The notes under the pieces are model-generated. The model did not search any database. It saw nothing but the letters and a program-made list of their open reading frames with translations, and had not been told where the DNA came from. A DNA stretch of 64,000 nucleotides from Candidatus Pelethousia sp. (lineage in GTDB: Bacteria; Bacillota; Clostridia; Christensenellales; CAG-138), in NCBI GenBank assembly GCA_034933245.1, contig JAYFNX010000011.1:948-64947 (forward strand). The letters are read 5' to 3'. Below, one piece after another: positions 11,383-40,399 of the stretch. The stretch's first letter is position 1, and each line of letters begins with the position of its first letter. Position numbers and translations under genes: made by a program.

Positions 11383-11383
11383 A

Positions 11384-18904: not shown

Positions 18905-18938
18905 GAAGGTTCCCTCCTTTCACCAGTTCCTTAATTTG

Positions 18939-18967: not shown

Positions 18968-18972
18968 CGCGC

Positions 18973-19009: not shown

Positions 19010-19020
19010 AAGCAAGACGC

Positions 19021-19263: not shown

Positions 19264-19268
19264 GGCGC

Positions 19269-19478
19269 TTATTTGGAGATGGTGAGGGTATGGGTGTCGT
19301 CAGCGCCCTGAGCGCTATGCACCTGATAACCGGCGTTTTGCGCGAAACGCGTCACATTGCCGAGCGCAACGGCATTGTCCACCAGCACCTCAATCCCTTC
19401 AGGAGAGACCTTGAGCGCCTGTTTTGTTAGAAGTACGGGTTCGGGGCAGGCCCGGCCACGGGCATCAACCTGTTTCAT
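19269..19478 (-). CDS. TusA/SirA-family sulfur(selenium)transferase, YedF-like
   Basis: 69 aa with N-terminal DARGRACPEP (CPxP active-site motif). Confidence 0.8.
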   Translation of the reverse strand: MKQVDARGRACPEPVLLTKQALKVSPEGIEVLVDNAVALGNVTRFAQNAGYQVHSAQGADDTHTLTISK

Positions 19479-19492
19479 AGGAAAATTCCTCC

Positions 19493-20557: not shown

Positions 20558-20673
20558 TAGAAGAATACCTCCTATATATGGATGATTGTGTGTGGTTCCT
20601 TACCAGGTTCATGATATAAAGGCGGGGAGGCAAACTCAAATAGAAATATCAAAAGAAAGGGAGATAACTATCG

Positions 20674-20691
20674 ATTTAATCTATATTAAAT
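20674..20691. promoter_or_regulatory. Inverted repeat ATTTAAT-ctat-ATTAAAT in the divergent yedE/desulfurase intergenic region
   Basis: 7-bp arms with a 4-bp spacer, seen directly in the sequence. Confidence 0.3.
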
Positions 20692-20861
20692 GACATGCAG
20701 ATAGAAAATTGGCTAAAAATTAACCAAAATGCTGCTTTATAAGCAAGACAAATGGGGAAGAACCATTTATAAAATCTATATATAAAGAAAAACCGTACAG
20801 ACAAACCAGGGGTGTTGCGGTATACTTTAAAAGAACAAAGGAACAATCGGGAGGCAAGCGG

Positions 20862-23817: not shown

Positions 23818-25086
23818 TTATTCCGCGATGCCGCACCAGCTTACGATGGTGCGGGCAAGTATTCTTATGGCATGGAGATAATCGGCAAGGTTTACCCACT
23901 CGTTGTTGGCATGCATCTGCTCCGTCATGCCCGGCCCAAAGATGACGGTAGGGGTGTTGCCATATTTAACAAGGTGGCGGATATCGGCCGCACCCTCCCG
24001 GCCCGAGATTACCGGCACTTTGCCCATAACGGCGGCAAAGCTGCCGCATAGTTCGGTTACGATAGGGCTCTCCACATCAATGGCCGCCGGCTCGGCAAAA
24101 TATCCGTTAAAAATGACCGCAGGCGGGTGATCCTTAAACCAGGGTTCCTGTTCGCTGACGCGTTGGGTAATGAAGCGCACAAATTCCGACTTTACCGCAT
24201 CGGAATCCTCCCCGGGAACGGTGGCCATGGACCCCTTGAGGGTACAGCTGTCCGGGAAGGCGCTGGCATAGGTTCCGCTGCTGAACTGGCCGATCATGCA
24301 AGGGATGGAAGCCAGAATATCAGGATAAAGCGGATGTCGAATTTTGGAAACGCGCTCTTTCTCAAATTCGGATACGGCTTTGGTGACAAGATAGCCAAGG
24401 TCTATGGCGTTTACCCCCTCGTAACGCCGCTGAATGCCGGCCGCTTTGCCTTTTATATTGATGGTAAACCAAATGCGGCCAATGGAACCGGGCTGTACCC
24501 GCATGCTGGAAGTTTCGCAGCAAATGCCGGCATCCGCACGATAGCCTTTTGTTACGCAGGCTAGGGTGCCGTTCCCTGAAAGCTCCTCGTCCATAACATA
24601 CTCGAGGATCACATCTCCCTTGAGCTTGATCCCCGCATCTCGCACCAGCTTCACGGCCATGGTCATGGCGGCAACGCCGGATTTCATATCCGCGGCGCCC
24701 CGGCCGTACATTTTCCCATCCGCAATATCCGCCGACCAGCAGCCATGTTCCCAATTGTCCGAAGATCCCTCTGGAATGACATCCACATGCCCATTGAACA
24801 GCAGGGAGCGCCCGCCGCCTTCTCCCTTAAGGACAGCCACCACATTCGGCCTGCCTTCATAAGAATCCACATCGACTTCTACAAAAGCGGGGTGCTTGCG
24901 AAGCGCATCCAATGCAGGGACAAAGCTGTCCACAGCAAGCCCCAGGCGGGTCAAATGCGCGCCTATGAACTCTTGAATAGGCCCCTCGTTGCCTGTGACG
25001 CTGGGGATACGCAAAATGTCCTGTAGAAAATGAATCGATTCTTTTTCTCTGGAGACTATAAAATCATCCAAATTTCCAATATTCAT
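23818..25086 (-). CDS. M20-family metallohydrolase (ArgE/DapE/YgeY-like)
   Basis: ATG at 25086 with AAGGAG 8 nt upstream. Motifs LLFNGHVDVIP and GRGAADMKSG are the M20 metal and catalytic motifs. Confidence 0.8.
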   Translation of the reverse strand: MNIGNLDDFIVSREKESIHFLQDILRIPSVTGNEGPIQEFIGAHLTRLGLAVDSFVPALDALRKHPAFVEVDVDSYEGRPNVVAVLKGEGGGRSLLFNGHVDVIPEGSSDNWEHGCWSADIADGKMYGRGAADMKSGVAAMTMAVKLVRDAGIKLKGDVILEYVMDEELSGNGTLACVTKGYRADAGICCETSSMRVQPGSIGRIWFTINIKGKAAGIQRRYEGVNAIDLGYLVTKAVSEFEKERVSKIRHPLYPDILASIPCMIGQFSSGTYASAFPDSCTLKGSMATVPGEDSDAVKSEFVRFITQRVSEQEPWFKDHPPAVIFNGYFAEPAAIDVESPIVTELCGSFAAVMGKVPVISGREGAADIRHLVKYGNTPTVIFGPGMTEQMHANNEWVNLADYLHAIRILARTIVSWCGIAE

Positions 25087-25194
25087 TCGAAGCGCTCCTT
25101 GTTTAAAGAAATCAGTGGAGATGACCTGCCTTGTATTTGTAAGTTTATCACACCACATAGAGCGATTCAACTGCCGAAAATGCCAGAAAACGGC

Positions 25195-25216
25195 CAAATA
25201 TTACCCGCAATATTTG
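25195..25216. promoter_or_regulatory. Inverted repeat CAAATATT-acccgc-AATATTTG in the divergent M20/PucR intergenic region
   Basis: 8-bp perfect arms. A third AAATATT copy lies about 40 bp downstream. Confidence 0.35.
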
Positions 25217-25425
25217 TATAAAACAAACAATAAGAAAGCGTGATACTCGGCGAGAAATATTGTAATGCAGGATCGAAAATAGTATCATATATTTACGAAA
25301 AATACCGATAATGTACATAAACCACACGAACAAACGATAATACGCGGCAGATCTAACAAATACCAAAACGCCGAATTTACGTGCATGCCATCGTCTTCAA
25401 AATACAAATTCAAGGGGATACCATT

Positions 25426-27108
25426 ATGGGAATATCGTTACTAGAGGCCATGCGTATACCTCCCTTCTCGGAAGCAAAACTGATAGCGGGTGCAGCCGGG
25501 ATTGGCCGCACGGTGGAATCCGCCAACATTCAAGAAGTGCCGGATGTAGACCGGTGGCTGCATGGGGGAGAAATCGTTTTTACGGCAGGGTATGCCTTTC
25601 AAACGACGGAGAACGCGGTGAAGCTACTGGAGCGGATAAACCACAAGGGCGCCACGGCAATGGCGATAAAACCCAGCCCATACCTTCCCTGCATTCCCAA
25701 GGAGATGATTGCATGCGCAGATAGGCTGGGATTTCCCCTTTTTGAAATATCGGAAGACATGCCCTATATGGATTGCATTCTACCGATATTGGAGCGCATC
25801 ACCCAAAGGCAGCTTACGGTTATGAAGCGGGTAGAAAGCGTGCATGAATCCCTGATGCAGTCGATCTTGCGGGATGAGGGCATGGACGGCATTTGCCGGA
25901 CGTTGAGTGGCGTTACGCAAAGCCCTGTTGCCATTCTTTCGCCCCAGGGGTCCATTATGGCCCGTTGGCATGAAGCCGCCCAGGAAGGCGCTTGTGCGCA
26001 AGACGAGGAGGAAGATGTGCGGCTCCAGGCCTTCCTGCGCAGCAGCAATGTACGCCATATGCGCCGGAACCAGTGCAATGCCGTAAACCTTGGGGATAAA
26101 ACAAGGCGCATATGCGTGCCGATCTTTGCACAGGACGCCCATATAGCTTACCTATTGCTGGATAAATCCATGGATGAAATGCTGGATCTCGATCTGATTG
26201 CATTTGAAAATGCCAGCTCTTTTATCGCCATCGAGATTTTGAAGGAAGAGGCGCTCATACAAAAGGAACAGAGAATTCGGGAGCAGTTCCTGGAGGACCT
26301 GTTTATGAAGCGCTATAACGACAACCGGGTTATGTACCAGCGGGGGTTGTATGTTGGCTTTGATATGAGCCGTCCCCATTGCGTTTTGGTGGTGGCGCCG
26401 GATGCTTTTGAAAGTTATATTTATGGCGAGCTGAAAAGCGCGAATGAAACGGAAGTGCAGAACATCAAGACCCGCATCCATAATTGCGTGCGGGACGGAC
26501 TTGCGGCCTATCCTGGTTCGCTTCTTACCATGACGGACGGGGTAAAAGTCGTAGCCATGGCGGAAATTCGAAATCCCGCGGATTTAAAGACCTTAAAGGT
26601 GGTTTTGCAGGAGTTGACGAAGAAGCTGACGAAGGAGTTTCCGCGCTTATTGTTTTCAGCCGGCGTAGGGCGCGTGAAACGCCGCCTTGAGGAAGTGGGG
26701 GTAAGCCGGGACGAGGCGATGCTTGCGCTGCGGGCAAGCCGCAAGACCAAGTTGCATACTGAGGACGAACGGATTATGTTCTTTGAGGATTTGGGGTGCC
26801 TGTGCTTTCTGTGTGAATTGGATGGTTCCACCGCTATGCGCAATTATTACGAGGAGCATATGCGCGCGCTGATAGAGTATGATGCGGAAAACAAGTGCGA
26901 TCTAATCGCAACGCTGGAAGCATACCTCGCGAGCAATCAAAACCTTCGGTTAACAGCAGAACGCCTTTTTGTGCATAAGAATTCCGTTATTTATAGGCTC
27001 CATAAAATCGAGGGGCTTATCGGGCAACGCCTCTCAGATGCAAAGACGGGATTTGATATGCAGCTTTGCTTATATTTACGCAGCATTTTTTCCGAACCGC
27101 AAAGGTGA
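25426..27108 (+). CDS. PucR-family transcriptional regulator
   Basis: ATG at 25426 with AAGGGGA upstream. It has a PucR-type N-terminal domain and a C-terminal HTH (LRLTAERLFVHKNSVIYRLHKIE). Confidence 0.85.
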   Translation: MGISLLEAMRIPPFSEAKLIAGAAGIGRTVESANIQEVPDVDRWLHGGEIVFTAGYAFQTTENAVKLLERINHKGATAMAIKPSPYLPCIPKEMIACADRLGFPLFEISEDMPYMDCILPILERITQRQLTVMKRVESVHESLMQSILRDEGMDGICRTLSGVTQSPVAILSPQGSIMARWHEAAQEGACAQDEEEDVRLQAFLRSSNVRHMRRNQCNAVNLGDKTRRICVPIFAQDAHIAYLLLDKSMDEMLDLDLIAFENASSFIAIEILKEEALIQKEQRIREQFLEDLFMKRYNDNRVMYQRGLYVGFDMSRPHCVLVVAPDAFESYIYGELKSANETEVQNIKTRIHNCVRDGLAAYPGSLLTMTDGVKVVAMAEIRNPADLKTLKVVLQELTKKLTKEFPRLLFSAGVGRVKRRLEEVGVSRDEAMLALRASRKTKLHTEDERIMFFEDLGCLCFLCELDGSTAMRNYYEEHMRALIEYDAENKCDLIATLEAYLASNQNLRLTAERLFVHKNSVIYRLHKIEGLIGQRLSDAKTGFDMQLCLYLRSIFSEPQR

Positions 27109-27387
27109 TACGCTCTAAAAACAGAATCGGTTTGCGCCATTTTAAGCCGTCGGGAGGGTTTCAATATGGAACGATAGCGCTTTTTTTCTTTTTGGGGAAC
27201 TTGATGGATTTTCCTATGAAAATACGCCCAACAGGTTAGCCCATTGGCAATCCAGCGCGCTGCTTACCTTGATTATACCGGGAGGATCAGAACGCATGGC
27301 CACAGCCTAAACTTTGGTCGCCTTATGAAGGGAAAATGAAAATGTACTGCGCCTAATATATGGACCACAATCACAAACATTTTTTAA

Positions 27388-27400
27388 AAACGTTGGTATG
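27388..27400 (+). promoter_or_regulatory. PucR-box-like motif AAACGTTGGTATG
   Basis: It resembles the B. subtilis PucR box WWWCNTTGGTTAA as I recall it (10 of 13 positions). It lies about 150 bp upstream of the DPD-like gene. Confidence 0.25.
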
Positions 27401-27548
27401 GTGTCACAATGACATGAAATCCGCGGATGTGATACGATAGCACCGTAAAAATGATTTAGAAAACAACCATATAAGCGTCTGTACAGAATCGAAAAAGCTT
27501 ATCAAAAAAACCCATCATAAGCACTTAGCATAGGAAAGGTGGAGCACA

Positions 27549-28700
27549 ATGGCAAATTTGGAAGTCTCTTATTGCGGCGTAAAGTTTCGCAATCCTTTGG
27601 TTCTTGCATCCGCAACCCCAGGCTGGGACGGAGAAGGTATGCGCCTGGCAGGAGAAGCGGGAATTGGCGGCGTTATCCCCAAGACGATTGGACCGGAACA
27701 GGACTGGGCTGCGCATCCGCGCAATGGCCGCATCTATTTGCACCGCTATAACGGCAAACCGATTGGACAAGTCAATCTTGAGCTGTTCACAACAATGAGC
27801 CGTGATGCATGGGTAAGGGAACAACTTGCTATCGCCAAAGAAGGCGGCGCTACGATGCAAGTTAGCATATTGGCTATGCCGGAGCCTGAAGAAACCGCCA
27901 AGCTGGTGGAGGAAATTCAGGCGACAGGGCTGGTGGATCTCTTTGAACTTAACGTTTCCTGTCCAATGCCCGCTTCCACGGTAGGCATGCACATTGGGAA
28001 AAGCCCCGAGCGCACCTTTAACCAAGTGAAAATTGCGAAGGCGGCATCCAAAATACCGTTTACGGTAAAAATGACGCCCAATGTAACGGATCTTATCGAT
28101 GTGAGCATTGCCGCAAAAGAAGCCGGCGCGGATGGCATTACCATCAGCAATTCCATCCGCTCTTTTGCAGGGGTGGATATTGAAAGCGGCAAGCCCTATC
28201 TGTGCGGATACGGCGGCTATACGGGCCCCGCAATTCATCCCATCATTATGCGCCATGTATCTGAAGTGGCACGCCATGTGGATATCCCTATCTCGGCTGT
28301 GGGGGGCGTAAACAGCTATAAAGAGGTAATCGAATTCATCATGCTGGGTGCAACGACCGTTCAGATCTGCACCGCCGTTATGTGGAACGGTTATGAACGC
28401 ATCACCCAGATTGTTAACGATTTGAACAAGTGGATGGATGCCAAAGGATACAAATCCTTTGAAGAGATTCGCGGGATTGCGCTTAAGGATATCACCACGG
28501 TGGAGAAGCTGGCGGAGTTGCCGGCCAAGTTCGCGGATGTGGATCGGGAGGCTTGCACCAATTGCGGCCTATGCCAACGCCTGTGTATGTATCGCGCCAT
28601 TCGCGAAAAGGACGGCAAGCGGTTTGTGGAAACCGGCAAGTGCGATGGTTGCGGCGTATGCGCCCAGTGGTGTCCTACCAAAGCAATTACGCTCAAATAA
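27549..28700 (+). CDS. Dihydroorotate/dihydropyrimidine dehydrogenase-like FMN enzyme with C-terminal 2x[4Fe-4S] domain (PreA-like)
   Basis: 383 aa with the class-1 DHOD/DPD barrel (active-site NVSCP, GGVNS) and CTNCGLCQRLC...CDGCGVCAQWCP. GAAAGGTGGAG RBS upstream. Confidence 0.85.
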   Translation: MANLEVSYCGVKFRNPLVLASATPGWDGEGMRLAGEAGIGGVIPKTIGPEQDWAAHPRNGRIYLHRYNGKPIGQVNLELFTTMSRDAWVREQLAIAKEGGATMQVSILAMPEPEETAKLVEEIQATGLVDLFELNVSCPMPASTVGMHIGKSPERTFNQVKIAKAASKIPFTVKMTPNVTDLIDVSIAAKEAGADGITISNSIRSFAGVDIESGKPYLCGYGGYTGPAIHPIIMRHVSEVARHVDIPISAVGGVNSYKEVIEFIMLGATTVQICTAVMWNGYERITQIVNDLNKWMDAKGYKSFEEIRGIALKDITTVEKLAELPAKFADVDREACTNCGLCQRLCMYRAIREKDGKRFVETGKCDGCGVCAQWCPTKAITLK

Positions 28701-28786: not shown

Positions 28787-29878
28787 ATGAAAAAGTATAT
28801 CGCATTATTGCTGACATTCCTAGTTACCGTTAGCATGGTAGCAGGATGCGCAGCCCCGTCCCAACCGGCAGCGCAAGCCCCTGCGGCCCAGGAACCCGCC
28901 GCAACGGAGGCCCAAGCTGCGGAGCCCGCCGCTGCAAGTGAACCCGCTTATGTGTTAAAGATCGGCCACGACCACACTACCACCTCTCCGATTCAAGCTT
29001 CAGCCGAAGAGTTCAAGCGCCTTGTGGAGGAAAATAGCAATGGCCAGATCAGCGTGGAAATTTATCCCGCCCAGCAGCTCGGCAGTTCCCGCGAGATGAT
29101 CGAAAGCCTGCAGATCGGCACGCTGGAAGCGGTGCTGCTCCCCACGGCCAAATTCGGCGGATTCGACCAGCGCCTCAACCTTGCCGATATGCCCTTTATC
29201 GCTGACTCGGAGAAGGACTTCTTAACGATCTTCAACGGCGAGATTGGCCAGGAAGCCATGAGCGGCTTGCCTTCCATCGGCATTACGGGCATTGCGTACT
29301 ACCCCGAAGGATTCAAAGCCATAACCAACAACGTGCACCCCATTGTGACGCCCGCGGATCTGAAGGGCCTCAAGATCAGAACCATGGAAGCGCCTATCAT
29401 AATGTCCATGTTCTCGGCATGGGGCGCAAACCCGGTTCCCGTGGATTTCACCGAAGTTTATAATTCCCTCCAGCAGAACGTTGTGGACGGCCAGGAGAAC
29501 CCGTTCCTGTCCATTCATGATATGAAGTTTTATGAAGTCCAAAAATACATGACCATTTCCAACCATGCGTATTTGTCCTATTTCCTGGCGGCGAGTACCT
29601 CGTGGTTTGATGCGCTCCCCGCCGATCTTCAGGAAGTTGTTAGACAGGCCGGGATAGATGCATCTGCATTTTGCCTTGTTAAGATGAACGAGGCCAATGA
29701 CGGCTATCTCAAGACCATCAAGGACTACGGCGTGGAAGTTTATGAGCTCAGCCAGGAAGAGCGGCAGACATTTAAGGATGCATGTTCCTCTGTCTATGAC
29801 GACTATCGCGATGTTATTGGCGGCGATCTGCTGGACCGTGCGGTTGCACAGGCTGCGGAACTGTCTGCGGCCCAATAA
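28787..29878 (+). CDS. TRAP transporter substrate-binding lipoprotein (DctP family)
   Basis: Lipobox VAGC, an Ala/Gln/Glu/Pro linker, then a DctP-type domain. GGAGGAAG RBS upstream. Confidence 0.85.
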   Translation: MKKYIALLLTFLVTVSMVAGCAAPSQPAAQAPAAQEPAATEAQAAEPAAASEPAYVLKIGHDHTTTSPIQASAEEFKRLVEENSNGQISVEIYPAQQLGSSREMIESLQIGTLEAVLLPTAKFGGFDQRLNLADMPFIADSEKDFLTIFNGEIGQEAMSGLPSIGITGIAYYPEGFKAITNNVHPIVTPADLKGLKIRTMEAPIIMSMFSAWGANPVPVDFTEVYNSLQQNVVDGQENPFLSIHDMKFYEVQKYMTISNHAYLSYFLAASTSWFDALPADLQEVVRQAGIDASAFCLVKMNEANDGYLKTIKDYGVEVYELSQEERQTFKDACSSVYDDYRDVIGGDLLDRAVAQAAELSAAQ

Positions 29879-29913: not shown

Positions 29914-29941
29914 TCGTCTGCCGCGTTTTCGCGGCAGACGA
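29914..29941 (+). terminator. Stable hairpin after the TRAP SBP gene (no clear U-tract)
   Basis: tcgtctgccgcg / tttt / cgcggcagacga. Confidence 0.45.
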
Positions 29942-29967: not shown

Positions 29968-30495
29968 ATGCTTGAACGGATGGATACCTACCTTTCGCGC
30001 TTTGAAAACGCGATAAACGGCGGCTTGATGCTTGCAGGCGTCGTCGTGTTATTTATAAACGTCATGATGCGTTACCTTTTTCATGCCGCATCTACTTGGG
30101 TGGAAGAAGCCTTGCGCTATGCGATTATCTGGGTGACTTTTTTTGGAGGCAGCCAGTGCGCAAAGAACGGCACACACGTTGGCATTGATCTTCTTACCCA
30201 ATCTCTTCCGGAAACCGGGAAACGGATACTTTCCGCAACGGGCCAGTTTATAGCAGGCGTATTAAACGCATTCTGTACCTATGCGGGGATACAGATGACA
30301 AAGCTCGTGCTGGACACGGCGCAGAAAAGTCCTGCAATTCTCATGCCGATGTGGATTGTGTATATAGCTATCCCCCTCGGATGTGGTCTGATGACGATCA
30401 GGTTCTTTGTTGCAGGCCTAAACATACTCAGGCATAATGGCCCGGGCTCCCTGATTGCCGACGAAGAAGGCCATGTCGATATGTCACGGCTGTAG
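29968..30495 (+). CDS. TRAP transporter small permease (DctQ family)
   Basis: 175 aa with four predicted TM helices, positioned between the DctP and DctM genes. Confidence 0.8.
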   Translation: MLERMDTYLSRFENAINGGLMLAGVVVLFINVMMRYLFHAASTWVEEALRYAIIWVTFFGGSQCAKNGTHVGIDLLTQSLPETGKRILSATGQFIAGVLNAFCTYAGIQMTKLVLDTAQKSPAILMPMWIVYIAIPLGCGLMTIRFFVAGLNILRHNGPGSLIADEEGHVDMSRL

Positions 30496-30504: not shown

Positions 30505-31788
30505 ATGATAGCAGCATTATTTATTTCCTTATTTGTTCTTTTGATTCTTGGCGCGCCGGTATTCGTAGCGCTGAGCCTGTCCTCGCTGATTGCCATCGTA
30601 GGATTTTCCAACTATCCGCTGATGATCGTGGTGCAGCGCATGGTGGGCGGCGTGGATAAGTTCTCCCTCATGGCGATCCCTTTCTTTATTTTAGGCGCGA
30701 ATGTTATGAAGACAGGCGGGATCGCAAAACGAATTTTAAACTGGGCCCAGACCATGGTGGGCGGCAACACGGGCGGCATGGCCATGACCACCGAGGTCGC
30801 CTGTATGTTCTTTGGGGCCGTGTCGGGTTCTTCTCCTGCAACGGTGATCGCCATCGGCGGCCTTATGTATCCCAAGATGATAGAAAAAAAATACCCAAGA
30901 GGATTTACCACAGGTTTAATTACCTCCAGCGGCTCCGTGGCGTTGCTTATCCCGCCCAGCATTTCCGCTATCGTATACGGATCCGTCACCGGCGCGTCTG
31001 TTGGCGCCCTGTTTATGGCCGGTCTTGGCGCGGGCATTCTTTACGGCATCTGCTTTATAGCCTATTGCTTCTGGTATGCGAAAAAACACAAAATTCCCAA
31101 GGATCCCAAATGCGACGCGAAAGCAAAGTGGAAAGCCACCCTGGACGCCGCATGGGCGCTGGGCATTCCCATTATCATCATGGGCGGAATTTATGCCGGC
31201 GTTTTCACGCCTACCGAAGCATCGGGCGTGGCAACCGTTTATGCGATTGTGGTTAGCCTTTTTGTTTATAGAGATATGAAGCTTAAGGAGCTTTGGGAGT
31301 GCTGTATAGCTTCTGCAGGTTCGACGGCGCAAGTTATGATCCTTCTGGCCGTCGCATCTATCTTCAGCTGGGTCCTCACGGTGGGGCAGATACCCCAACA
31401 GCTTTCCCAGATGATCGTAAACGCGAATCTTTCGGCCGTGGGATTCCTCCTGGTGACAAACCTGCTGCTCATTGTGGAGGGGATGTTTATTGATGGCTCT
31501 TCCGCCATCATCATCACCGCGCCGCTGCTTTACAGCGCAGCCGTGGCACTGGGAATTAATCCGATTCACCTGGGCGTTATCATGGTTGCCAACGCCGCAA
31601 TCGGTATGTTCACACCGCCCTTTGGCCTCAATTTGTTCGTGGCGCAACCTGTTACGGGCAATAACATGAAAACCATTATGAAAGGCGTCATGCCCTTTGT
31701 GCTGATAAGCCTCATCGCCCTGGCGCTGATTACCTATCTGCCGGAGGTAAGCCTATTCCTGCCGAGGCTGGTTTACGGAACCGTTTAA
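30505..31788 (+). CDS. TRAP transporter large permease (DctM family)
   Basis: 427 aa, polytopic, with a typical DctM N-terminus. Confidence 0.9.
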   Translation: MIAALFISLFVLLILGAPVFVALSLSSLIAIVGFSNYPLMIVVQRMVGGVDKFSLMAIPFFILGANVMKTGGIAKRILNWAQTMVGGNTGGMAMTTEVACMFFGAVSGSSPATVIAIGGLMYPKMIEKKYPRGFTTGLITSSGSVALLIPPSISAIVYGSVTGASVGALFMAGLGAGILYGICFIAYCFWYAKKHKIPKDPKCDAKAKWKATLDAAWALGIPIIIMGGIYAGVFTPTEASGVATVYAIVVSLFVYRDMKLKELWECCIASAGSTAQVMILLAVASIFSWVLTVGQIPQQLSQMIVNANLSAVGFLLVTNLLLIVEGMFIDGSSAIIITAPLLYSAAVALGINPIHLGVIMVANAAIGMFTPPFGLNLFVAQPVTGNNMKTIMKGVMPFVLISLIALALITYLPEVSLFLPRLVYGTV

Positions 31789-31869: not shown

Positions 31870-32724
31870 TTGCGAGTCAATACCTATTATAAACCCGCTA
31901 CCTTGCGGGAAGCATTGGTTTGTATGCGGTCCGGTGGTATCGTAAAAGCGCTTGCCGGCGGAACGGATTTGATTATCGAAATGAACGGAGGAAAGATTGC
32001 GCTGGATGCGCTGGTGGATCTTTCCGCTATATCCGAACTTAAGAACATAGAAGCCAGAGAAGACGGGCTGCATGTGGGCAGCATGGCCACCTTTTCGCAA
32101 ATCGCCAGCAGCGCGCTTGTGCAAAAAATATGCCCTATGCTCGCCGAAGCGGCTGCGATGGTGGGCTCGACCCAGGTGCGGAACAGTGGCACCATTGGAG
32201 GAAATCTGGCAAATGCGGCGACGGCGGCGGATACGGTTCCTGCGTTAATGGCTGCCGACGCCGTTGCGGTCATCAAGAACGCGGAAGGGATGCGCGTTCT
32301 GCCGGTAACCAATATTCCGACCGGGCTGAATACCACATGCCTCGCGGCGGACGAGCTGATTTTTGAGTTAATCATACCCCGGCATACGGGCTGCTTCATG
32401 GCTTTTGAAAAGATTGGACGGCGCAAAGCGCTTGCCATTTCCCGCATTAATATGGGCCTGTTGCTTGAAATGACCGGCAGCACCATTGCGCGCGCTGCGG
32501 TGGCTTACGGAGCGGTGGGAAAAACAGCATACCGCGTAACGGAGCTGGAGACGTTCCTGGAAGGGAAGCAACTCGACGAGGCCTTGATCAAACAGGCGGG
32601 AGATCTGGCGGAAAAAATCGTTACGGAAAAGCTTGCCGGAAGAAAGACCACGCCATATAAACGAAAGATTGCGGCGGCGGTGCTACGGCGTGCGCTTACC
32701 AGGGCGAATGGAGGTGCTGTGTAA
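31870..32724 (+). CDS. Molybdenum hydroxylase FAD-binding subunit (CoxM/XdhB/NdhF type)
   Basis: 284 aa, TTG start with GAGGAG 9 nt upstream. FAD-binding motif LAGGTDLI and TIGGNLAN. Confidence 0.85.
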   Translation: MRVNTYYKPATLREALVCMRSGGIVKALAGGTDLIIEMNGGKIALDALVDLSAISELKNIEAREDGLHVGSMATFSQIASSALVQKICPMLAEAAAMVGSTQVRNSGTIGGNLANAATAADTVPALMAADAVAVIKNAEGMRVLPVTNIPTGLNTTCLAADELIFELIIPRHTGCFMAFEKIGRRKALAISRINMGLLLEMTGSTIARAAVAYGAVGKTAYRVTELETFLEGKQLDEALIKQAGDLAEKIVTEKLAGRKTTPYKRKIAAAVLRRALTRANGGAV

Positions 32725-33189
32725 ATGGTACGCAAGATGACATTCGAAATAAACGGGCAGAACTATACTGTGGAAGTTGACCCTTCCATGCGCCTGTTGG
32801 ATCTCATCCGGGATGTGATTGGCCTTACGGGAACAAAAGAGGGCTGCGCCGAAGGGGAATGCGGCGCCTGCACCGTGATTCTGGACGGGGAAGCCGTTAC
32901 GAGTTGCCTTGTGCTGGCAGGCCAAGCCGAAGGCCATTCGATCATCACCATCGAGGGCGTTTCTCAAAACGGCGAGCTTACCAGGCTCCAGCAGGCTTTT
33001 GTGGATTGCGGCGCGATCCAGTGCGGCTTTTGCACGCCGGGCATGATTCTCTCGGCAAAGGCGCTGCTGGATAAAAACCCTCATCCCACGGACGATGAAA
33101 TCCGCACGGCAATTTCGGGCAACCTGTGCCGCTGCACAGGGTACGTAAAAATTGTGGACGCCGTTAAAAAGGCGGCCCAGGAGGAGTGA
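32725..33189 (+). CDS. Molybdenum hydroxylase 2x[2Fe-2S] subunit (CoxS/NdhS type)
   Basis: 154 aa. CAEGECGAC and QCGFCTPG...CRCTGY cluster motifs. Confidence 0.9.
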   Translation: MVRKMTFEINGQNYTVEVDPSMRLLDLIRDVIGLTGTKEGCAEGECGACTVILDGEAVTSCLVLAGQAEGHSIITIEGVSQNGELTRLQQAFVDCGAIQCGFCTPGMILSAKALLDKNPHPTDDEIRTAISGNLCRCTGYVKIVDAVKKAAQEE

Positions 33190-33192
33190 GCC

Positions 33193-34488
33193 ATGATACC
33201 GACCTCTGAATTCAAAGTAGTAGGAAAGCGGGAAGTCAGGAAGGATTCGCTGCCAAAAGCAACCGGGGCGGCCCGTTATGCGGCGGATATTAAAATGCCC
33301 GGCATGCTGTGCGGGAAGGCGCTTCGGAGCGAATATCCGCATGCGAAGATCCTATCTATCGATACCGATGCGGCCAAGGCGATGCCCGGCGTGCATGCGG
33401 TGCTTACAGCCAAAGATATCCCTGGTATCAATAAGTTTGGCCTGGCAATCGCGGACCAGGAGGTATTGGCCAGCAAAAAGGTGCGCATGATGGGCGACGC
33501 CGTGGCGCTCGTTGCCGCGGAAACGCTGGAGCAGTGCGAGGCCGCACTTCGCCAAATAAAGGTGGCGTATCAGGAATTGCCGGGGGTATTTTCCATTGAG
33601 GACGGCATCAAGGAAGGCGCACCCCTTGTGCATGAAGATGTGCCGGGCAACCTTCTTCAGCATACCATGGTGCGCAAGGGCGATGTTAGCACCGCGTGGG
33701 CGGACTGTGCCTATATTGTGGAAAACGACTATACCACCCAGCGCGTGGAACACGCCTATATCGAACCGGAGGTAGCGGTGGCATACATCGATACCATGGG
33801 CGTTATGAACGTGCTCAATTCAACGCAATATACGTTCCGGGACAGAAGGCAAATTGCCCCGGTCATCGATATGCCGCATAACATGGTGCGGGTGCAACAG
33901 CAGACGACAGGCGGCGGATTCGGCGGAAAAGATGACATCACCTGTGAAATTCAGGCGGCTTTGTTGGCGCTGAAGACAGGGAGACCCGTGAAGGTGGTAT
34001 GGACCCGCAGCGAATCCATGGCCTGCTCCACGAAGCGGCACCCCATGAAAATCCACGTTAAGACCGGATGCGATAAAAACGGAAAATTGCTGGCCATGGA
34101 AGGAACCGTCTATAGCGATAAGGGTGCGTATTGCTCCATCGGCCACTTTATTACCAAAAAAGCCGGGCTGCACCTTGCGGGCCCCTATTATATTCCAAAC
34201 ATTTGTGTGGATACGTATAGCATCTATACCAATAACACAATCTCCGGACCGTATCGTGGGTTCGGAATTCTACAGTCTGCCTTTGCGCACGAATCCCAGA
34301 TGGATCAGCTTGCCGACCTTGTCGGTATGGATCCGCTGGAATTCAGACTTCTCAATTGCCTGAAACATGGGTTATCCACCGCGACAGGACAGGTGTTCAC
34401 CCAGGGCGTGGGGTTTGAGGATACGCTACTGGCCATGAAAGAATATATGGGTGAGACAGACCTGTATGGCGAGGAGGGAGATCAATGA
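33193..34488 (+). CDS. Molybdopterin-binding subunit, N-terminal chain (NdhL-like)
   Basis: 431 aa with an a/b-hammerhead domain plus the first Mo-pterin domain (GGGFGGK motif). It ends at a TGA overlapping the next start (ATGA). Confidence 0.85.
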   Translation: MIPTSEFKVVGKREVRKDSLPKATGAARYAADIKMPGMLCGKALRSEYPHAKILSIDTDAAKAMPGVHAVLTAKDIPGINKFGLAIADQEVLASKKVRMMGDAVALVAAETLEQCEAALRQIKVAYQELPGVFSIEDGIKEGAPLVHEDVPGNLLQHTMVRKGDVSTAWADCAYIVENDYTTQRVEHAYIEPEVAVAYIDTMGVMNVLNSTQYTFRDRRQIAPVIDMPHNMVRVQQQTTGGGFGGKDDITCEIQAALLALKTGRPVKVVWTRSESMACSTKRHPMKIHVKTGCDKNGKLLAMEGTVYSDKGAYCSIGHFITKKAGLHLAGPYYIPNICVDTYSIYTNNTISGPYRGFGILQSAFAHESQMDQLADLVGMDPLEFRLLNCLKHGLSTATGQVFTQGVGFEDTLLAMKEYMGETDLYGEEGDQ

Positions 34489-35498
34489 AAAAACGCGGAC
34501 GCGGAATAGGATGCAATCTTTATGGTGTGGGCTATGGCTTCAGCCGGCCGGACCATTCCGCCGCTACGGTGGAGGTCGCGGACGACGGCACTGCCACCGT
34601 ACTTTCCGGGGCATGCGATATTGGGCAGGGTTCGGATACGGCGCTTTGCCAGATCGCTGCGGAGGAACTGGGTATTCCCTATACGAATGTGCGCATTGTT
34701 AGCGCGGACACGGCCTTTACGCCGGATGCGCTTGCCAGCACCGCAAGCCGCGAAACCTTTGTTTCGGGCCGCGCCGTGCAGCTTGCCGCCAAGGATGCCA
34801 AAACGTATCTTCTCAAATATGCAGCGGAGCTTCTCAACTGTTCCCAGGAGGAGCTGGATGTAAGAGCCAACGCAGTGGTTTCGTCCAGGAATCCGGAAAT
34901 TACCATGCCGTTCCCCGAGCTTTGCGCGCTGGCGCATAATAACGGGAGACGGTTCATTGGGTTTGCTTGGTATGATAACACCACGAAGGATGTGGACCAT
35001 GATACCAACCAGGGGGATGCCTATGCCACTTACATTTATGCGACCCAGGTGGCGGATGTGGAAGTGGATACCGAGACAGGCGATGTAACGGTTTTAAGGG
35101 TAGGCGCAGCCCACGATGTTGGCCGCGCAATCAACCCCATGATGGTGGAGCAACAGGTGGAGGGAGCCGTTCTACAGGGCATGGGGTATGGAATTATGGA
35201 GGAAGTTATCCTGGATAAAGGGCACACGCTGACGCCCAACTTCTCCAAATTCCTCATACCAACCGCAAAGGATGCGCCGAGGATAAAAACCTACATTGTG
35301 GAGTCCGATGTGGGACGCGGGCCTTTTGGGGCAAAGGGCGTAGGGGAAGGGGCCATCATACCGACCGCCGCGGCGGTGGTAAATGCCGTAAACAATGCCA
35401 TAGGCGTGCGCATTCGGGAGTTGCCGATCACACCGGAAAAGATATTGGCTGCCCTTGAAGAAAAAGAAAAAGCGACGCAGCAAGAAGGTAAAAAGTAA
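34485..35498 (+). CDS. Molybdopterin-binding subunit, C-terminal chain (NdhM-like)
   Basis: 337 aa containing the second half of the aldehyde oxidase/xanthine dehydrogenase Mo domain (DIGQGSDT, GVGEGA). It is in a different frame from the L chain. Confidence 0.85.
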   Translation: MKKRGRGIGCNLYGVGYGFSRPDHSAATVEVADDGTATVLSGACDIGQGSDTALCQIAAEELGIPYTNVRIVSADTAFTPDALASTASRETFVSGRAVQLAAKDAKTYLLKYAAELLNCSQEELDVRANAVVSSRNPEITMPFPELCALAHNNGRRFIGFAWYDNTTKDVDHDTNQGDAYATYIYATQVADVEVDTETGDVTVLRVGAAHDVGRAINPMMVEQQVEGAVLQGMGYGIMEEVILDKGHTLTPNFSKFLIPTAKDAPRIKTYIVESDVGRGPFGAKGVGEGAIIPTAAAVVNAVNNAIGVRIRELPITPEKILAALEEKEKATQQEGKK

Positions 35499-35523: not shown

Positions 35524-35563
35524 AAACGCCCACGGCACATACTTGTGCCGTGGGCGTTTGATT
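35524..35563 (+). terminator. Strong rho-independent terminator of the hydroxylase operon
   Basis: aaacgcccacggcaca / tact / tgtgccgtgggcgttt (16-bp stem). Confidence 0.85.
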
Positions 35564-35897: not shown

Positions 35898-36135
35898 AAT
35901 CTATTGTGATATTCCGCCCGCTGGGCCAAACGCTCCTTTGCATACGGAACGGGAGGTGCGCTATAAATCCTATTCGCCCAAGCCACATCTGAAAAAAGAG
36001 AACGATTCGGAAGAGATGCGGATGCAGGGGCAAACTTCCGTAACGCCGTCATAATTCCGAAATTTCGGCGCAGACTATGCCCGAGTAACAAGGATGGAAA
36101 ATTCATAAAATTCAACCACGATGCAAAGGAGTGAA

Positions 36136-36594
36136 ATGCATATGCCCAAGCCCCAGACGGCGCAGCAAAAGCAATATCAACAGCGGGTAAACGAGAAGAT
36201 GCCTCGAAGCAATACCTTTTCCCAATGCGTTCGCGCTTTCATATCCGGCGGGATCATCTGCTGCATCGGCCAGGCGGTGCGGAATTACGGCCTGGGGCCC
36301 CTGGGACTTTCCGAGGACAACGCGGCTGCTTTTACGGCCATGGTTATGGTATTCTTAGGCGCTACGCTCACAGGCATTGGAATTTACGATAAAATAGGCG
36401 CATGGTCCGGTGCGGGCAGCATCGTACCCATCACAGGCTTTGCAAACTCCATCGTCTCCCCGGCAATGGAGTTTAAAAGGGAAGGGTTTGTTATGGGCGT
36501 GGGGGCAAAGCTTTTTTCCATTGCCGGCCCTGTTCTGGTGTATGGTATTAGCGCCTCCGTTCTCGTTGGGCTGATCACCTGCCTAATCAAATAG
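36136..36594 (+). CDS. spoVAC: Stage V sporulation protein AC
   Basis: Conserved SpoVAC core (FISGGIICCIGQ..., PITGFANS). AAAGGAG RBS before the ATG at 36136. Confidence 0.85.
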   Translation: MHMPKPQTAQQKQYQQRVNEKMPRSNTFSQCVRAFISGGIICCIGQAVRNYGLGPLGLSEDNAAAFTAMVMVFLGATLTGIGIYDKIGAWSGAGSIVPITGFANSIVSPAMEFKREGFVMGVGAKLFSIAGPVLVYGISASVLVGLITCLIK

Positions 36595-36611
36595 GAAAGG
36601 GGAGTAGAACA

Positions 36612-37643
36612 ATGAAAAGCAAAGGCGCCGGGCGGCAAACGGTCGTGTTTGTTGCGCCGCCGAGAATCATTTCCTCTGCGGCAATCGTAGGGGATTTGGA
36701 GGGAAAAGGCCCCGTTGGCAGCTATTTTGATGAAGTGCTTACGGATGATACATGGGGAGAGGATAGCTGGGAAAAGGCGGAGCGTAAAATGTTTGAGCAG
36801 ACGGTTCGCCGGGCGTTGGAAAAAGTTTCCTTACAAGCAGGGGATTTGGACTGCCTGCTGGGCGGGGACCTTTTGAACCAGATTATCTCAGCCAATTTTG
36901 CCGCCCGGGAACTGCGCACGCCTTTCCTGGGCCTTTATGGAGCCTGCTCCACCATGGCGGAGGGCCTGCTTTTGGGCAGCATGCTCATCGACGGCGGGTA
37001 TGCGGGCAAGATCGCTTGTGCGGCAACGAGCCACTTTTCCACGGCCGAGCGTCAATACCGCCTCCCTTTGGAAATGGGGGGACAAACGGCACCAACGGCC
37101 CAGCGTACAGTAACGGGGGCGGGTTCCAGCATTTTGACGGACAGCGGCTATACGGGCAAGATGTTATACCGCAATGTGTTTGTGACCGCCGGCACCATTG
37201 GCCGCGTTGTGGATCTTGGCATTACGGATGCAAGCAACATGGGCGCGGCCATGGCCCCTGCGGCAGCAGATACGCTCTCCACACATTTAAGCGATACGGG
37301 CCGCAGCATTCGGGATTACGACCTGGTTGTTACCGGGGATTTAGGAAGCTTTGGCAGCGAGATGTTCCTGGAGCTTTGCCGTGATAACGGCATTGATGCG
37401 GAGCGGCGGCATTTGGACTGTGGCAATTTGATCTTTTCCGGTAGCCAGAAGGTGGATTGCGGAGGGAGCGGCTGTGGTTGCTCGGCGAGCGTGCTAAATG
37501 CCTATCTTCTCCAGCGCATAGAACAAGGGGACTTACGCCGCATCTTGTTCATGGCTACCGGCGCCCTTATGAGCACCACCAGCGGCATGCAAAGCGAAAG
37601 CATTCCGGGCATTGCCCATGGCGTGGTATTAGAGCGCAAATAA
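36612..37643 (+). CDS. spoVAD: Stage V sporulation protein AD
   Basis: 343 aa with a thiolase-like SpoVAD pattern (LGLYGACST). It sits between spoVAC and spoVAE. Confidence 0.9.
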   Translation: MKSKGAGRQTVVFVAPPRIISSAAIVGDLEGKGPVGSYFDEVLTDDTWGEDSWEKAERKMFEQTVRRALEKVSLQAGDLDCLLGGDLLNQIISANFAARELRTPFLGLYGACSTMAEGLLLGSMLIDGGYAGKIACAATSHFSTAERQYRLPLEMGGQTAPTAQRTVTGAGSSILTDSGYTGKMLYRNVFVTAGTIGRVVDLGITDASNMGAAMAPAAADTLSTHLSDTGRSIRDYDLVVTGDLGSFGSEMFLELCRDNGIDAERRHLDCGNLIFSGSQKVDCGGSGCGCSASVLNAYLLQRIEQGDLRRILFMATGALMSTTSGMQSESIPGIAHGVVLERK

Positions 37644-37658
37644 AAGGAGAGAAACGAT

Positions 37659-38015
37659 ATGGATTATGTTTGGGCGTTCCTCATAGGCGGCGGCATTTGC
37701 GTAATCGGCCAGCTGTTTATTAGCCTTACCCGCCTTACACCGGCCCGCATCCTGGTCATTTTTGTAACGGCCGGCGTTTTTCTTACGGCCTTTGGCTTAT
37801 ATGAACCCTTGGTGGAGCTGGGCGGCGCAGGGGCCACCGTGCCGTTAATGGGGTTTGGCTATGCCCTGGGAATGGGAGCCATAGAAGGGGCCATGGAAAA
37901 CGGCGTTATCGGCGCATTCACCGGCGGCATTACGGCCACTGCAGGCGGCGTGGCGGCGGCCATCGTATTTGGCTACCTGAATGCTTTAATTTTTACGCCG
38001 AAAACAAAAAAATAA
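37659..38015 (+). CDS. spoVAE: Stage V sporulation protein AE (SpoVAEb type)
   Basis: 118 aa, membrane protein, homologous in pattern to SpoVAC (PLMGFG). Confidence 0.85.
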   Translation: MDYVWAFLIGGGICVIGQLFISLTRLTPARILVIFVTAGVFLTAFGLYEPLVELGGAGATVPLMGFGYALGMGAIEGAMENGVIGAFTGGITATAGGVAAAIVFGYLNALIFTPKTKK

Positions 38016-38495: not shown

Positions 38496-40142
38496 TTATT
38501 GCACTTGTGCATCGGACACGGGCGGGTTGAGCAAAGCGGGATTAGCCAAAGCGGTGCTGCCGTCCGCATTTTGAATGATCTCATAGGCCGGGTCCAGCGC
38601 CGTTCCGGGCAGGAAACCGGGCCATACATAATAGGTTAAAGCATGGGCGTTGTACTTGCTGGTAGCAATTTCCTTGGTTTCAACCACGGTGCCGTCCTTT
38701 TTATAGGTGGCATACGTCTTATAGATATAACCGTCCTTGGCGGATTTATATTTCATCCAGTAAGGTTGGGTTATCCAAGATTGCACTTCGTATACGGTCT
38801 CCGGAGCGGGGAGGGTTTCCGCGAGCTCCGAGGAAAGCTCGATGGTATCAAAGGTATCCGGGAAGGGCTCGCCGTAGATTTCGCACACCACGGTATAGTC
38901 GGCAGTATCCACCCAAGTAAAGACATAGACCGGGCTTTGGGTATTGTTCTTCCACTTAAAATCAATGGTTCCCGTGTTGATGGTGGCGTCCAGCCCACCG
39001 TCTATATAACCGCTGCGGCTGGAGTGGTTGCGCCGGTAGGTAATTTCCATATCTCCCTTGAGGACGGCGTTATAGACCGTGGTGGAGATCTGGCAGACGC
39101 CGCCGCCGGGCTGGTCCTCCGTGCCGGAGCCGCCGCCAATCACCGCAGGGGCCATTTTCCAACCATATTTTTCATACCGGTCGCCCAGAATGGTATTGGC
39201 GGAGAATTCTTCCCCAGGTTGAAGCACCGTGCCGTAAACTAAGCCAGTTGCTTTTTTTAGATTGAAGACGCGGTTTGCGTTGCTGCGGGTACTTTTATAA
39301 GAGGTAAAGGCGCTGCCCCGTAAAACCAGGGTTTCTTTCAGGGTGTCCACCGTTACATCGGCGGGAATGTTTGCCATAACCACATCCAAATCGCCGAAAT
39401 CCTTGCTGGCGGTGCGTTGGTTGACCACCTCCAGCAGGGCGGGAATGTCGATGCCGTATCCATCCACCGAGGGAACGAAATCGAAGAACAGATCCCGCTT
39501 ATCGGTGATGCTTCCATCCTCCGGCAAAGAAATATTCAAGGCGGCCTGGGCCTTGGTATCTTCTTTTATAGGAAGGGACTTGACGCTGACGCTGGCCGGC
39601 ACCGCCGCAGTGGTGAGAGAATCCGCAAAGGTGTGGATATACGCTTCCACGCGGGTGGGCTCCACCGTATAGTCCAACTCATAAGCGCGGCCTTTGGTTT
39701 TAATGTCATCCAGTTCCGCCTTTAAGGAATTGAGGTCGCCGCTGCGAGCCAGGGACAGGGCCTGCTCAATAACCTCTTCGGTATTGAAAGAGATATCGAA
39801 GTAACTACTGTCCGCCAAATAGCTCTTGCCATCGCACTGAAAATTGAAGAAAACGCCGTCTTGAATCTCCTGCTCCACAGCGGCTAAGGCTGTGCGCGCA
39901 TCGGCCGGGGACATGCCCGAAACATCCATGCCGCCGATGGTAACGCCCTCGTGAAAGACACCGGATTCAATGATATTCTGGCGAAGCTTCTCTTTGTATT
40001 CCCCACTTAAATACAGGAAAGCGAACACGCCGCCCACTAGCACAAGAATGCTGAGCAATACGATGATCACCGTCTTAAAAGGCGAGCCGCTTTGGGGATT
40101 CTTCTTCTTTCTCTTCTTTGCCGTACGTACTTCCGTTTCCAT
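38496..40142 (-). CDS. VanW-family protein, membrane anchored (paralog 1)
   Basis: ATG at 40142 with AAGGA 7 nt upstream. It has a basic N-terminus and a TM helix. VanW core GGGVCQISTTVYNAVL...RRNHS. Confidence 0.85.
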   Translation of the reverse strand: METEVRTAKKRKKKNPQSGSPFKTVIIVLLSILVLVGGVFAFLYLSGEYKEKLRQNIIESGVFHEGVTIGGMDVSGMSPADARTALAAVEQEIQDGVFFNFQCDGKSYLADSSYFDISFNTEEVIEQALSLARSGDLNSLKAELDDIKTKGRAYELDYTVEPTRVEAYIHTFADSLTTAAVPASVSVKSLPIKEDTKAQAALNISLPEDGSITDKRDLFFDFVPSVDGYGIDIPALLEVVNQRTASKDFGDLDVVMANIPADVTVDTLKETLVLRGSAFTSYKSTRSNANRVFNLKKATGLVYGTVLQPGEEFSANTILGDRYEKYGWKMAPAVIGGGSGTEDQPGGGVCQISTTVYNAVLKGDMEITYRRNHSSRSGYIDGGLDATINTGTIDFKWKNNTQSPVYVFTWVDTADYTVVCEIYGEPFPDTFDTIELSSELAETLPAPETVYEVQSWITQPYWMKYKSAKDGYIYKTYATYKKDGTVVETKEIATSKYNAHALTYYVWPGFLPGTALDPAYEIIQNADGSTALANPALLNPPVSDAQVQ

Positions 40143-40399
40143 TCTCCCATCCTTCTCTGAAAAATCCAAGGGCTTTCAGATTTTATCAAGGAGCTATGCA
40201 GGTACCCGTTTTGCATATAAAATCAAAACCGGGAAAAATTAATAACACAGCTCTACACTCCCTGATTATACGTGATACGCTTGTGCACTGTAAAGGATAA
40301 GATTATGAAGATTTCTGAAACATTCTACCAGCTTATGCCCGTTTACGAAAGAGCCAGCATGTGGTACAATTGATCAGATATAGTACAAGGAGGCCTCAA

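Follow-up and report, generated by a model that had tools for sequence, protein, structure and literature searches.

To our knowledge, few pathways for the anaerobic degradation of N-heterocycles are known at the gene level, e.g. the fermentation of nicotinate and the purine/2,8-dioxopurine pathway. The chemistry of the molybdenum hydroxylases, and the path that the electrons take from Mo over two [2Fe-2S] clusters to FAD, are well established for the family as a whole. The closest described system for the locus presented here is the selenium-dependent nicotinate dehydrogenase of Eubacterium barkeri (NdhF/S/L/M; PDB 3HRD), of which the Mo subunit is split into two chains, L and M (PMC5746545). 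A comparable F-S-L-M operon was found in a 64,000-nucleotide stretch of Candidatus Pelethousia sp. (Clostridia; contig JAYFNX010000011.1, positions 948 to 64,947), hereafter the window. We propose, with a probability of roughly 60% and on the basis of sequence comparison, that the operon encodes a heteromeric Mo hydroxylase of a non-nicotinate subfamily, which would catalyze the first step in a PucR-regulated module for the conversion of an N-heterocycle. The split architecture as such is not new, since the E. barkeri arrangement has been published and the public siblings of the window proteins are annotated by homology. What is new is a separate subfamily, set apart by its substrate pocket and by the conserved genes that accompany it, which implies an anaerobic catabolic route not characterised before.

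The domains found in F, S, L and M all exceed the Pfam gathering scores (E-values from 1e-10 to 1e-82; Table 1), and together they make up the set that defines the xanthine oxidase/Mo-hydroxylase superfamily. The four open reading frames (ORFs) that a first-pass annotation had placed at 31870-35498, with their sizes and the ATGA at 34485-34488, were recovered exactly in the ORF list and the sequence. Among solved structures, each of the four chains has its best match in its counterpart in E. barkeri Ndh (F, S, L and M correspond to 3HRD chains C, D, A and B), in line with the earlier remark that gene order and chain sizes mirror those of that enzyme. F scores 127 bits against its Ndh counterpart and 106 bits against the next structure, the CO dehydrogenase flavoprotein CutM (1FFV). 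For S the values are 205 bits and 175 bits, the latter for 8UEM chain C, a [2Fe-2S] subunit deposited with the CoxL CO dehydrogenase, and for L (383 and 209 bits) and M (300 and 189 bits) the next relative is in both cases 4-hydroxybenzoyl-CoA reductase (4-HBCR). No grouping with the CO dehydrogenases, the placement that the annotation had considered as an alternative, was observed. The E. barkeri sequences were rebuilt from the alignments printed for 3HRD (residues 4-415 of L, 1-330 of M and 7-152 of S). Identities to these are modest, with 43.7% (L), 47.4% (M) and 61% (S), and the eight cysteines for the two [2Fe-2S] clusters are present in S (Cys41/46/49/61 and Cys100/103/135/137).

The active site has a conserved catalytic core and a substrate pocket that differs from that of Ndh, which was the outcome of the comparison of Mo-centre residues that the annotation had advised. 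Positions were mapped via the printed alignments to bovine xanthine dehydrogenase (XDH; chain index + 570) and 3HRD, and those in the M-chain were anchored on bovine Phe1005, whose equivalence to Tyr13M has been confirmed (PMC5746545). The residues that are retained are Gln212L (bovine Gln767, E. barkeri Gln208L), the motif Arg355-Gly-Phe357L (bovine Arg912-Gly-Phe914, kept in E. barkeri), Tyr13M, which is present in the window and E. barkeri alike, and the catalytic glutamate Glu288M within the motif GVGE (bovine Glu1261). At the position of bovine Glu802, however, the window has Asp247L and E. barkeri Leu243L, and at that of bovine Arg880 they have Lys323L and Arg319L, respectively. (The arginine of a "KRHP" motif had been a candidate for the Arg880 equivalent, but was rejected because the printed bovine alignment pairs it with Arg839.) The pair is Leu/Arg in all 24 Ndh-type sequences, as compared to Asp/Lys in all 14 window-type and sister sequences. 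The M-chain loop that corresponds to bovine Phe1009-Thr1010 reads Asn17-Thr18M in E. barkeri and Tyr17-Gly18-Phe19M, with one residue extra, in the window; the consensus is YGIG-NTGLPN for the Ndh types and YG[VI]GYGF[SN]RPD for the window type (YGVGYGFS in the window itself). Moreover, the residue after the catalytic glutamate is Gly in the window type and Pro in the Ndh types. The window enzyme lacks the pocket signature of the nicotinate clade (Leu, Arg, M loop YGIG-NTG). Tyr13M has been modelled to form a hydrogen bond with the pyridine ring nitrogen of nicotinate (PMC5746545), and its retention speaks for an N-heterocycle as the substrate here, too. The Asp/Lys pocket suggests that this ring may be more polar than nicotinate, or substituted differently.

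A second line of evidence is found in the gene context. The loci compared here are the matches listed, a set that is biased by the search patterns; E. barkeri itself is not among the scanned-genome loci, and five proxies that are 59-74% identical to NdhL (L006-L010) were used instead. A gene for a reductase resembling PreA and dihydropyrimidine dehydrogenase (DPD) is present in ten of the ten window-type loci (67-100% identity), and a nicotinate-pathway marker in none of them. The situation is reversed in the Ndh-type loci, with at least two such markers in 18 of the 21 and PreA in none. Two of the proxies (L008 and L010) carry genes for an enamidase-like amidohydrolase, AA_synth, an Hgd-like dehydrogenase, a B12 mutase and MutL, besides an Hnr-like protein of ~500 aa with two N-terminal [4Fe-4S] clusters, PrpF (Mii), and members of the aconitase (Dmd) and ICL/PEP-mutase (Dml) families. 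Homologs of hnr, ena, hgd, mgm, mii, dmd and dml are lacking in the 64-kb window. The earlier observation that nicotinate-fermentation genes are not nearby thus extends to all ten window-type loci, and the differences in active site and neighbourhood give strong backing to the suggestion of a possibly different substrate.

In the window, the genes for PALP-489 and an M20 amidohydrolase (minus strand) are followed on the plus strand by those for PucR, the PreA-like protein, DctP-Q-M and F-S-L-M. Most window-type loci share PucR, the M20 hydrolase and a carboxylate transporter. In L001, L004, L040 and L086-L089 a pucR gene precedes the cluster, and the M20 copy is 62-68% identical in L004, L040 and L086-L088, whereas the transporter varies from TRAP (L004, L086, L087) to TAXI-TRAP (L088) and ABC (L003/L089). 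The layout of L087 is identical to that of the window. In L086 it is M20 | PucR-TRAP-PreA-FSLM, in L088 (Ca. Formimonas warabiya) M20 | PucR-PreA-FSLM-TAXI-TRAP, in L004 PucR-PreA-F-S-(LM fused)-TRAP-...-PALP-M20, and in L089 (Thermanaeromonas) PucR-racemase-PreA-DUF6282-(SL)-M-F-ABC. A Christensenellaceae chromosome (L040) holds homologs of PALP-489, M20, PucR, PreA and FSLM. PALP-489 is co-located in L004, L040 and L087, but was treated as accessory because its family occurs also without Ndh-like genes. The PreA-like protein scores 290 bits against the NCBIfam PreA model, below the cut-off of 335, and the structure nearest to it is that of pig DPD, in the FMN/pyrimidine domain (residues 532-848; 151 bits). 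The best PDB match of DctP (202 bits) is a DctP of the sugar-acid/dicarboxylate type, which is uninformative on the ligand. Neither an Rfam scan of the whole window nor a sensitive scan of 25100-27650 yielded a riboswitch, so there is no clue to the ligand from that side. Literature searches returned no cluster in which a Se-dependent hydroxylase is paired with DPD/PreA, nor one that combines PucR, DHODH, TRAP and XDH.

These data bear directly on the possibility that the enzyme is a true nicotinate dehydrogenase, which forms 6-hydroxynicotinate and feeds another downstream route, with the PreA-like protein in place of Hnr and other hydrolases in place of the enamidase. E. barkeri Ndh is by far the nearest characterised enzyme, Tyr13M is conserved, a TRAP transporter suits a carboxylate such as nicotinate, and the reduction of C4=C5-C6=O in the enone-like 6-hydroxynicotinate would be chemically akin to the reduction of uracil by DPD. 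The public siblings NCB30916.1 and NCB30915.1 (at least 90% identical to the window L and M, respectively) are in fact labelled as the large and medium molybdopterin subunit of nicotinate dehydrogenase; because pocket and context differ, this label is probably over-specific. Yet both canonical substrate-contact positions are changed in every member (Leu to Asp and Arg to Lys), the pocket loop of the M-chain is one residue longer and has Tyr for Asn, and the nicotinate-pathway genes are absent from every window-type locus while the Ndh-type pocket signature tracks with them even in Deltaproteobacteria. In addition, intermediate clades are 49-53% identical to the window, versus 44-46% for the E. 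barkeri-like loci. We therefore consider a nicotinate dehydrogenase with a different downstream route rather unlikely, and infer that the window enzyme and the nicotinate enzyme are not orthologues and that the former represents a separate, widespread clostridial subfamily with, as judged from the aligned residues, another substrate pocket.

For such a non-nicotinate hydroxylase the following mechanism can be proposed. By homology, L and M would jointly form the Mo-cofactor/substrate domain, with the active site at the L/M interface; L would contribute Gln212, Asp247, Lys323 and Arg355-Gly-Phe357, and M Tyr13, the Tyr17-Gly-Phe loop and Glu288 as the catalytic base. The Mo-bound hydroxyl is expected to attack a ring carbon beside the ring nitrogen, with transfer of the hydride to the terminal ligand of the metal (Mo=Se or Mo=S), and from there the electrons would reach the FAD in F by way of the two [2Fe-2S] clusters in S. 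The logic of the pathway is inferred from conserved gene linkage: a carboxylated N-heterocycle would be imported by the TRAP, TAXI or ABC transporter and hydroxylated to the lactam by the Mo hydroxylase, the PreA/DPD-like flavo-FeS enzyme could reduce the conjugated C=C bond of the lactam, and the M20 amidohydrolase (by amide hydrolysis), perhaps together with the PLP enzyme, may process the opened ring. In a more specific form, for which we see the balance as even, the hydroxylase of the window clade would be a distinct Mo enzyme, possibly a Mo-Se enzyme, with a carboxylated N-heterocycle, but not nicotinate, as its specific substrate, and would open a previously undescribed anaerobic pathway of wide occurrence in the Clostridia; candidate substrates are picolinate, isonicotinate and a pyrimidine- or pyrazine-carboxylate. 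Hydroxylation would then be followed directly by ring reduction by the DPD/PreA-like enzyme and by hydrolysis of the M20 type, and the electrons might be recycled such that the net effect is a hydration of the ring.

The polar Asp/Lys pocket might also accommodate an oxo-substituted purine- or pyrimidine-like ring, and could in that case point to a reductive dehydroxylase that runs in reverse, like 4-HBCR or DOPDH, the selenium-dependent 2,8-dioxopurine dehydrogenase, and removes an oxo group before ring reduction by the PreA-like protein. 4-HBCR is the second-closest solved relative, and DOPDH, which groups nearest to the Ndh enzymes, reduces urate, after which a ring reductase acts. Nevertheless, F is a plain FAD protein of 284 aa with no counterpart to the additional [4Fe-4S] insertion in the beta subunit of 4-HBCR, the FAD domain of the window enzyme is absent in DOPDH, and the operon encodes no low-potential donor system. 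A reductive role thus seems quite improbable.

The division of the Mo subunit needs to be considered separately, as it could be thought to result from a frameshift (a pseudogene or an assembly error) in a single chain of ~770 aa. The operon is tightly packed: the F stop codon abuts the S start codon, S and L are 3 nt apart, and the 4-nt overlap of L and M is the ATGA, in which L ends and, in another frame, M begins (GGA GAT CAA TGA / ATG AAA AAA). The last part of L contains a strong Shine-Dalgarno sequence, GAGGAGGGAG, 4 nt ahead of the M start. With this element within L and an ATG that overlaps the TGA of L, the sequence itself shows that the translation of M is coupled to that of L. Residues 1-329 of the window M align with NdhM 1-330 and both chains open with MKKRG; M thus aligns residue 1 to residue 1 with NdhM, of which the start is that of the chain in the crystal structure, and the split point is identical. 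Proteins identical to the window L and M have been deposited from a metagenome-assembled genome of Candidatus Pelethousia sp. (MEA5058816.1 and MEA5058817.1) and recur in other, independent assemblies.

Among the best 120 L homologs (56-100% identity) almost all are L-only chains of 406-456 aa that are split at the same residue; 16 are S-L fusions, still without MoCoBD_2, and two carry that domain (P0057, of 755 aa, and P0015, which is partial). In the window clade the M-chain always starts with [MV]KKRGRG, although the junction varies from an overlap of 4 nt (window, L001, L040, L089) to 0 nt (L088), +12 (L087), +27 (L003) and +35 (L086), with both frames still open, and in L004/L005 it is fused, the stop codon being lost and the Shine-Dalgarno sequence and a GTG retained. 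The 4-nt overlap occurs in 13 of the 21 split loci (12 relatives and the window). These varied geometries around a constant M start cannot be explained by sequencing error. Fused orthologues do exist (P0057 in L004/L005, and L043), and the distant family (39-53% identity) is mostly fused (64 fused and 21 split, among 85 loci and the window scored); even so, given the strong Shine-Dalgarno sequence and the recurrence of the split in close homologs, a frameshift is effectively refuted. The translational coupling that the first-pass annotation had put forward hence stands, nearly all close homologs keep the split point that it had advised to check, and the converse picture, of fused orthologs of ~770 aa and an indel in this genome, does not hold. 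As both split and fused forms recur in relatives, also within the E. barkeri-like group (L008 and L009 fused, L007 and L010 split), the split is an evolutionarily labile state at one fixed site, ~12 residues upstream of the active-site Tyr13M loop.

Several relatives show further rearrangements. The L-M fusion of 755 aa, which is 70% identical, was found in two sequencing runs (L004, 9479-11746; L005, 3336-5603); its junction keeps GAAGGAGG and a GTG at the former M start, and the stop codon alone is missing. L and M are also fused in a member of the Peptococcaceae (L043). In Thermanaeromonas toyohensis (LT838272; L089) and 15 other homologs of the Moorellaceae type S and L are fused (582-597 aa) and M is separate, and the gene order in these relatives is SL-M-F, the FAD subunit gene having moved to the end. 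It follows from the S-L fusions and the displaced F gene that the subunit boundaries of the enzyme have been reshuffled repeatedly. One or two extra complete gene sets of the fused XDH family lie beside the Ndh-like operon in L001 (3810-7448) and L003 (716-8117). Downstream of the M stop codon in the window a perfect 16-bp hairpin (-39.3 kcal/mol versus -22.7 for shuffles, z = -5.3) likely marks the end of the operon, and promoter and terminator consensus scans gave signals at background level only.

Upstream of the catabolic module, at 296 bp from its PALP gene, lies a selenium supply and maturation module. Its operon has the order yedE, tusA/yedF-like, PF11823 carrier and selD, and is divergent from the gene for a selenocysteine lyase of the EF2568/SclA type. 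Because an in-frame UGA, at codon 18, sits at the catalytic Cys/Sec position (MSSGEKIYLSKMTSCGG-U-AAKIGPGVLENML; SCGG-U-AAKIGPGV), SelD itself is probably a selenoprotein; simple ORF calling shortens the gene to 17858-18817. A fold resembling a selenocysteine insertion sequence, in the 67 nt that follow the selD UGA, was no more stable than shuffles (z = 0.26), so that the position of the motif by itself carries the selenocysteine call. No tRNA gene, tRNA-Sec included, was found in the window. A 514-aa ORF in the module combines an XdhC-family part (residues 16-328) and a dUTPase part (residues 362-451) with no stop codon in between. The exact protein is absent from a collection of 15 billion sequences, and the ORF could represent either a true fusion or a dut gene with an internal start at METLYF. 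The position of the selenium module beside the catabolic cluster lends support, though no decisive one, to the selenium idea of the first-pass annotation, and a selenium-dependent enzyme is plausible.

A number of observations weigh against a non-nicotinate, possibly selenium-dependent hydroxylase at the head of a new pathway. The selenium module is adjacent in none of the other window-clade loci examined, and it may simply serve selenocysteine synthesis, as SelD itself appears to be a selenoprotein. No tested ORF in the 64-kb window matched the YqeB or YqeC model; yqeB and yqeC are marker genes of the selenium-dependent Mo hydroxylase trait, although in C. difficile they are not clustered with selD. 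SelD, to which the trait is likewise tied, is encoded in the window. Published analyses did not identify active-site residues by which Se enzymes can be told from S enzymes. Of the ten window-type loci, only six hold the M20 gene and four the PALP-489 gene (within ~10 kb of L), and the PALP-489/PALP-490 family is very abundant, highly conserved and found elsewhere without Ndh-like genes. The PreA-like enzyme could still be analogous to 6-hydroxynicotinate reductase, and nicotinate would then be a possible substrate. Finally, the pocket differences are those suggested by alignment to bovine XDH and 3HRD, the function and the kind of substrate of the window clade are proposed from sequence and gene context, and the accompanying tree is a neighbour-joining tree without outgroup or support values, computed on the biased locus sample.

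The window has several further features besides those of Table 1. A threonine-synthase-like PALP gene (410 aa) and a Bmp/PnrA-type ABC transporter are encoded at 244-6774 (plus strand), and the same set directly adjoins the PALP-490 gene in other Clostridia (L090, L091). This recurrence suggests that PALP-490 is part of a second, separate functional unit; in relatives PALP-490 is found in other neighbourhoods, with no selenium genes nearby. At 9997-12226 (minus strand) a GltD-like gene (461 aa) is paired with one for a FAD/NAD-binding protein (280 aa) that resembles sulfide/dihydroorotate dehydrogenases; this pair resembles NfnAB and could be an electron-transfer partner, but is 15 kb away from the PreA-like gene. 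Between dctP and dctQ, which are 89 nt apart, lies a GC-rich palindromic hairpin of 12 bp (29914-29941), which may stabilise the mRNA or cause attenuation behind the gene for the binding protein. The genes spoVAC/AD/AE (36121-38015), which follow directly downstream of the operon, identify the host as a spore-forming Firmicute. Three VanW-domain proteins are encoded within 25 kb, all on the minus strand (38496-40169, 56530-57867 and 61542-63434).

Table 1. Features of the hydroxylase operon, the catabolic partner genes and the selenium module, with window coordinates
Feature	Coordinates	Strand	Evidence
ndhF-like FAD subunit, 284 aa, TTG start	31870-32724	+	Pfam FAD_binding_5 and CO_deh_flav_C; best PDB 3hrd_C, 126.7 bits
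ndhS-like 2x[2Fe-2S] subunit, 154 aa	32725-33189	+	Pfam Fer2 and Fer2_2; best PDB 3hrd_D, 205 bits
ndhL-like N-terminal Mo-cofactor part, 431 aa	33193-34488	+	hammerhead (Ald_Xan_dh_C) and MoCoBD_1; 3hrd_A, 383 bits
ndhM-like C-terminal Mo-cofactor part, 337 aa	34485-35498	+	MoCoBD_2; 3hrd_B, 300 bits
Translational-coupling junction	34471-34488	+	Shine-Dalgarno 34471-34480, 4-nt spacer, ATGA 34485-34488
16-bp hairpin 3' of ndhM stop	35524-35559	+	fold versus shuffles
PALP-489, distant CysK/CBS-like PLP enzyme	22309-23778	-	accessory neighbour
M20 (ArgE/DapE-like) amidohydrolase, divergent from pucR	23818-25197	-	Pfam and NCBIfam
PucR-family regulator, 575 aa	25381-27108	+	Pfam PucR, GGDEF_2 and HTH_30
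PreA/DPD-like FMN and 2x[4Fe-4S] reductase, 383 aa	27549-28700	+	Pfam DHO_dh and Fer4
TRAP transporter, DctP	28787-29878	+	Pfam
TRAP transporter, DctQ	29968-30495	+	Pfam
TRAP transporter, DctM	30505-31788	+	Pfam
Selenium supply/maturation module	15152-22013	mixed	NCBIfam, Pfam, sequence
XdhC+dUTPase ORF	15152-16696	-	XdhC_CoxI, XdhC_C and dUTPase domains
SelD with Sec codon	17858-18904	-	TIGR00476, 363 bits; TGA 18851-18853
PF11823 Se/S carrier, 80 aa	19021-19263	-	Pfam
TusA/YedF-like protein, 69 aa, CPxP motif	19269-19478	-	NCBIfam, Pfam
YedE	19493-20557	-	TIGR04112, 506 bits
SclA/EF2568-type selenocysteine lyase	20862-22013	+	TIGR01977, 415 bits, above cut-off

With a conserved module of hydroxylase, reductase and hydrolase that occurs in Clostridia of gut and digester, in Peptococcaceae and in Moorellaceae, the pathways listed above would gain a new member, possibly with a further selenium-dependent hydroxylase. 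A second structural class of Ndh-type enzymes would also help to study how pocket residues set specificity, and a clade in which split and fused forms occur side by side is a natural experiment on why a Mo subunit is divided just upstream of its active-site loop. Labels such as "nicotinate dehydrogenase" on members of the window clade in the databases should not be trusted, and are wrong if the non-nicotinate reading is true.

Compared with the known systems, the window enzyme shares most with E. barkeri Ndh (EC 1.17.1.5). They have in common the F-S-L-M order, chains of similar size (284/154/431/337 aa in the window, 296/160/425/330 aa in E. barkeri), the conserved Gln, Arg-Gly-Phe motif, Tyr13M and catalytic Glu (288M and 289M, respectively), and a strictly anaerobic Firmicute as host. 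They differ in the pocket (Leu243L to Asp247L, Arg319L to Lys323L), in the M loop, where Asn17M-Thr18M is replaced by Tyr17M-Gly-Phe with a one-residue insertion, in the Pro that has become Gly after the catalytic Glu, and in the partner genes, PreA-like reductase, PucR, M20 and TRAP genes being found instead of hnr to dml. The Se-dependent hydroxylases of purinolytic clostridia and Enterococcus (XDH, purine hydroxylase and DOPDH/XdhAC) belong to the same superfamily, but have fused Mo subunits and purine substrates, and DOPDH also lacks FAD, whereas the window enzyme is split and has FAD. The arrangement of selD and the EF2568/SclA-type lyase gene resembles the selD-sclA order of the E. faecalis locus, and an XdhC-type maturation factor is also present. 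4-HBCR (1RM6), the second-best solved relative of L and M, likewise comes from an anaerobe, but is unlike the window enzyme in its fused alpha subunit, the extra [4Fe-4S] cluster in its FAD subunit, its CoA-ester substrate and its reductive direction. The product of the PreA-like gene, in turn, has the domain order of PreA/DPD, i.e. an FMN (DHO_dh) domain and, C-terminal to it, a 2x[4Fe-4S] domain; unlike PreA/DPD, its gene has no adjacent PreT/GltD-like partner and is always linked to a Mo hydroxylase.

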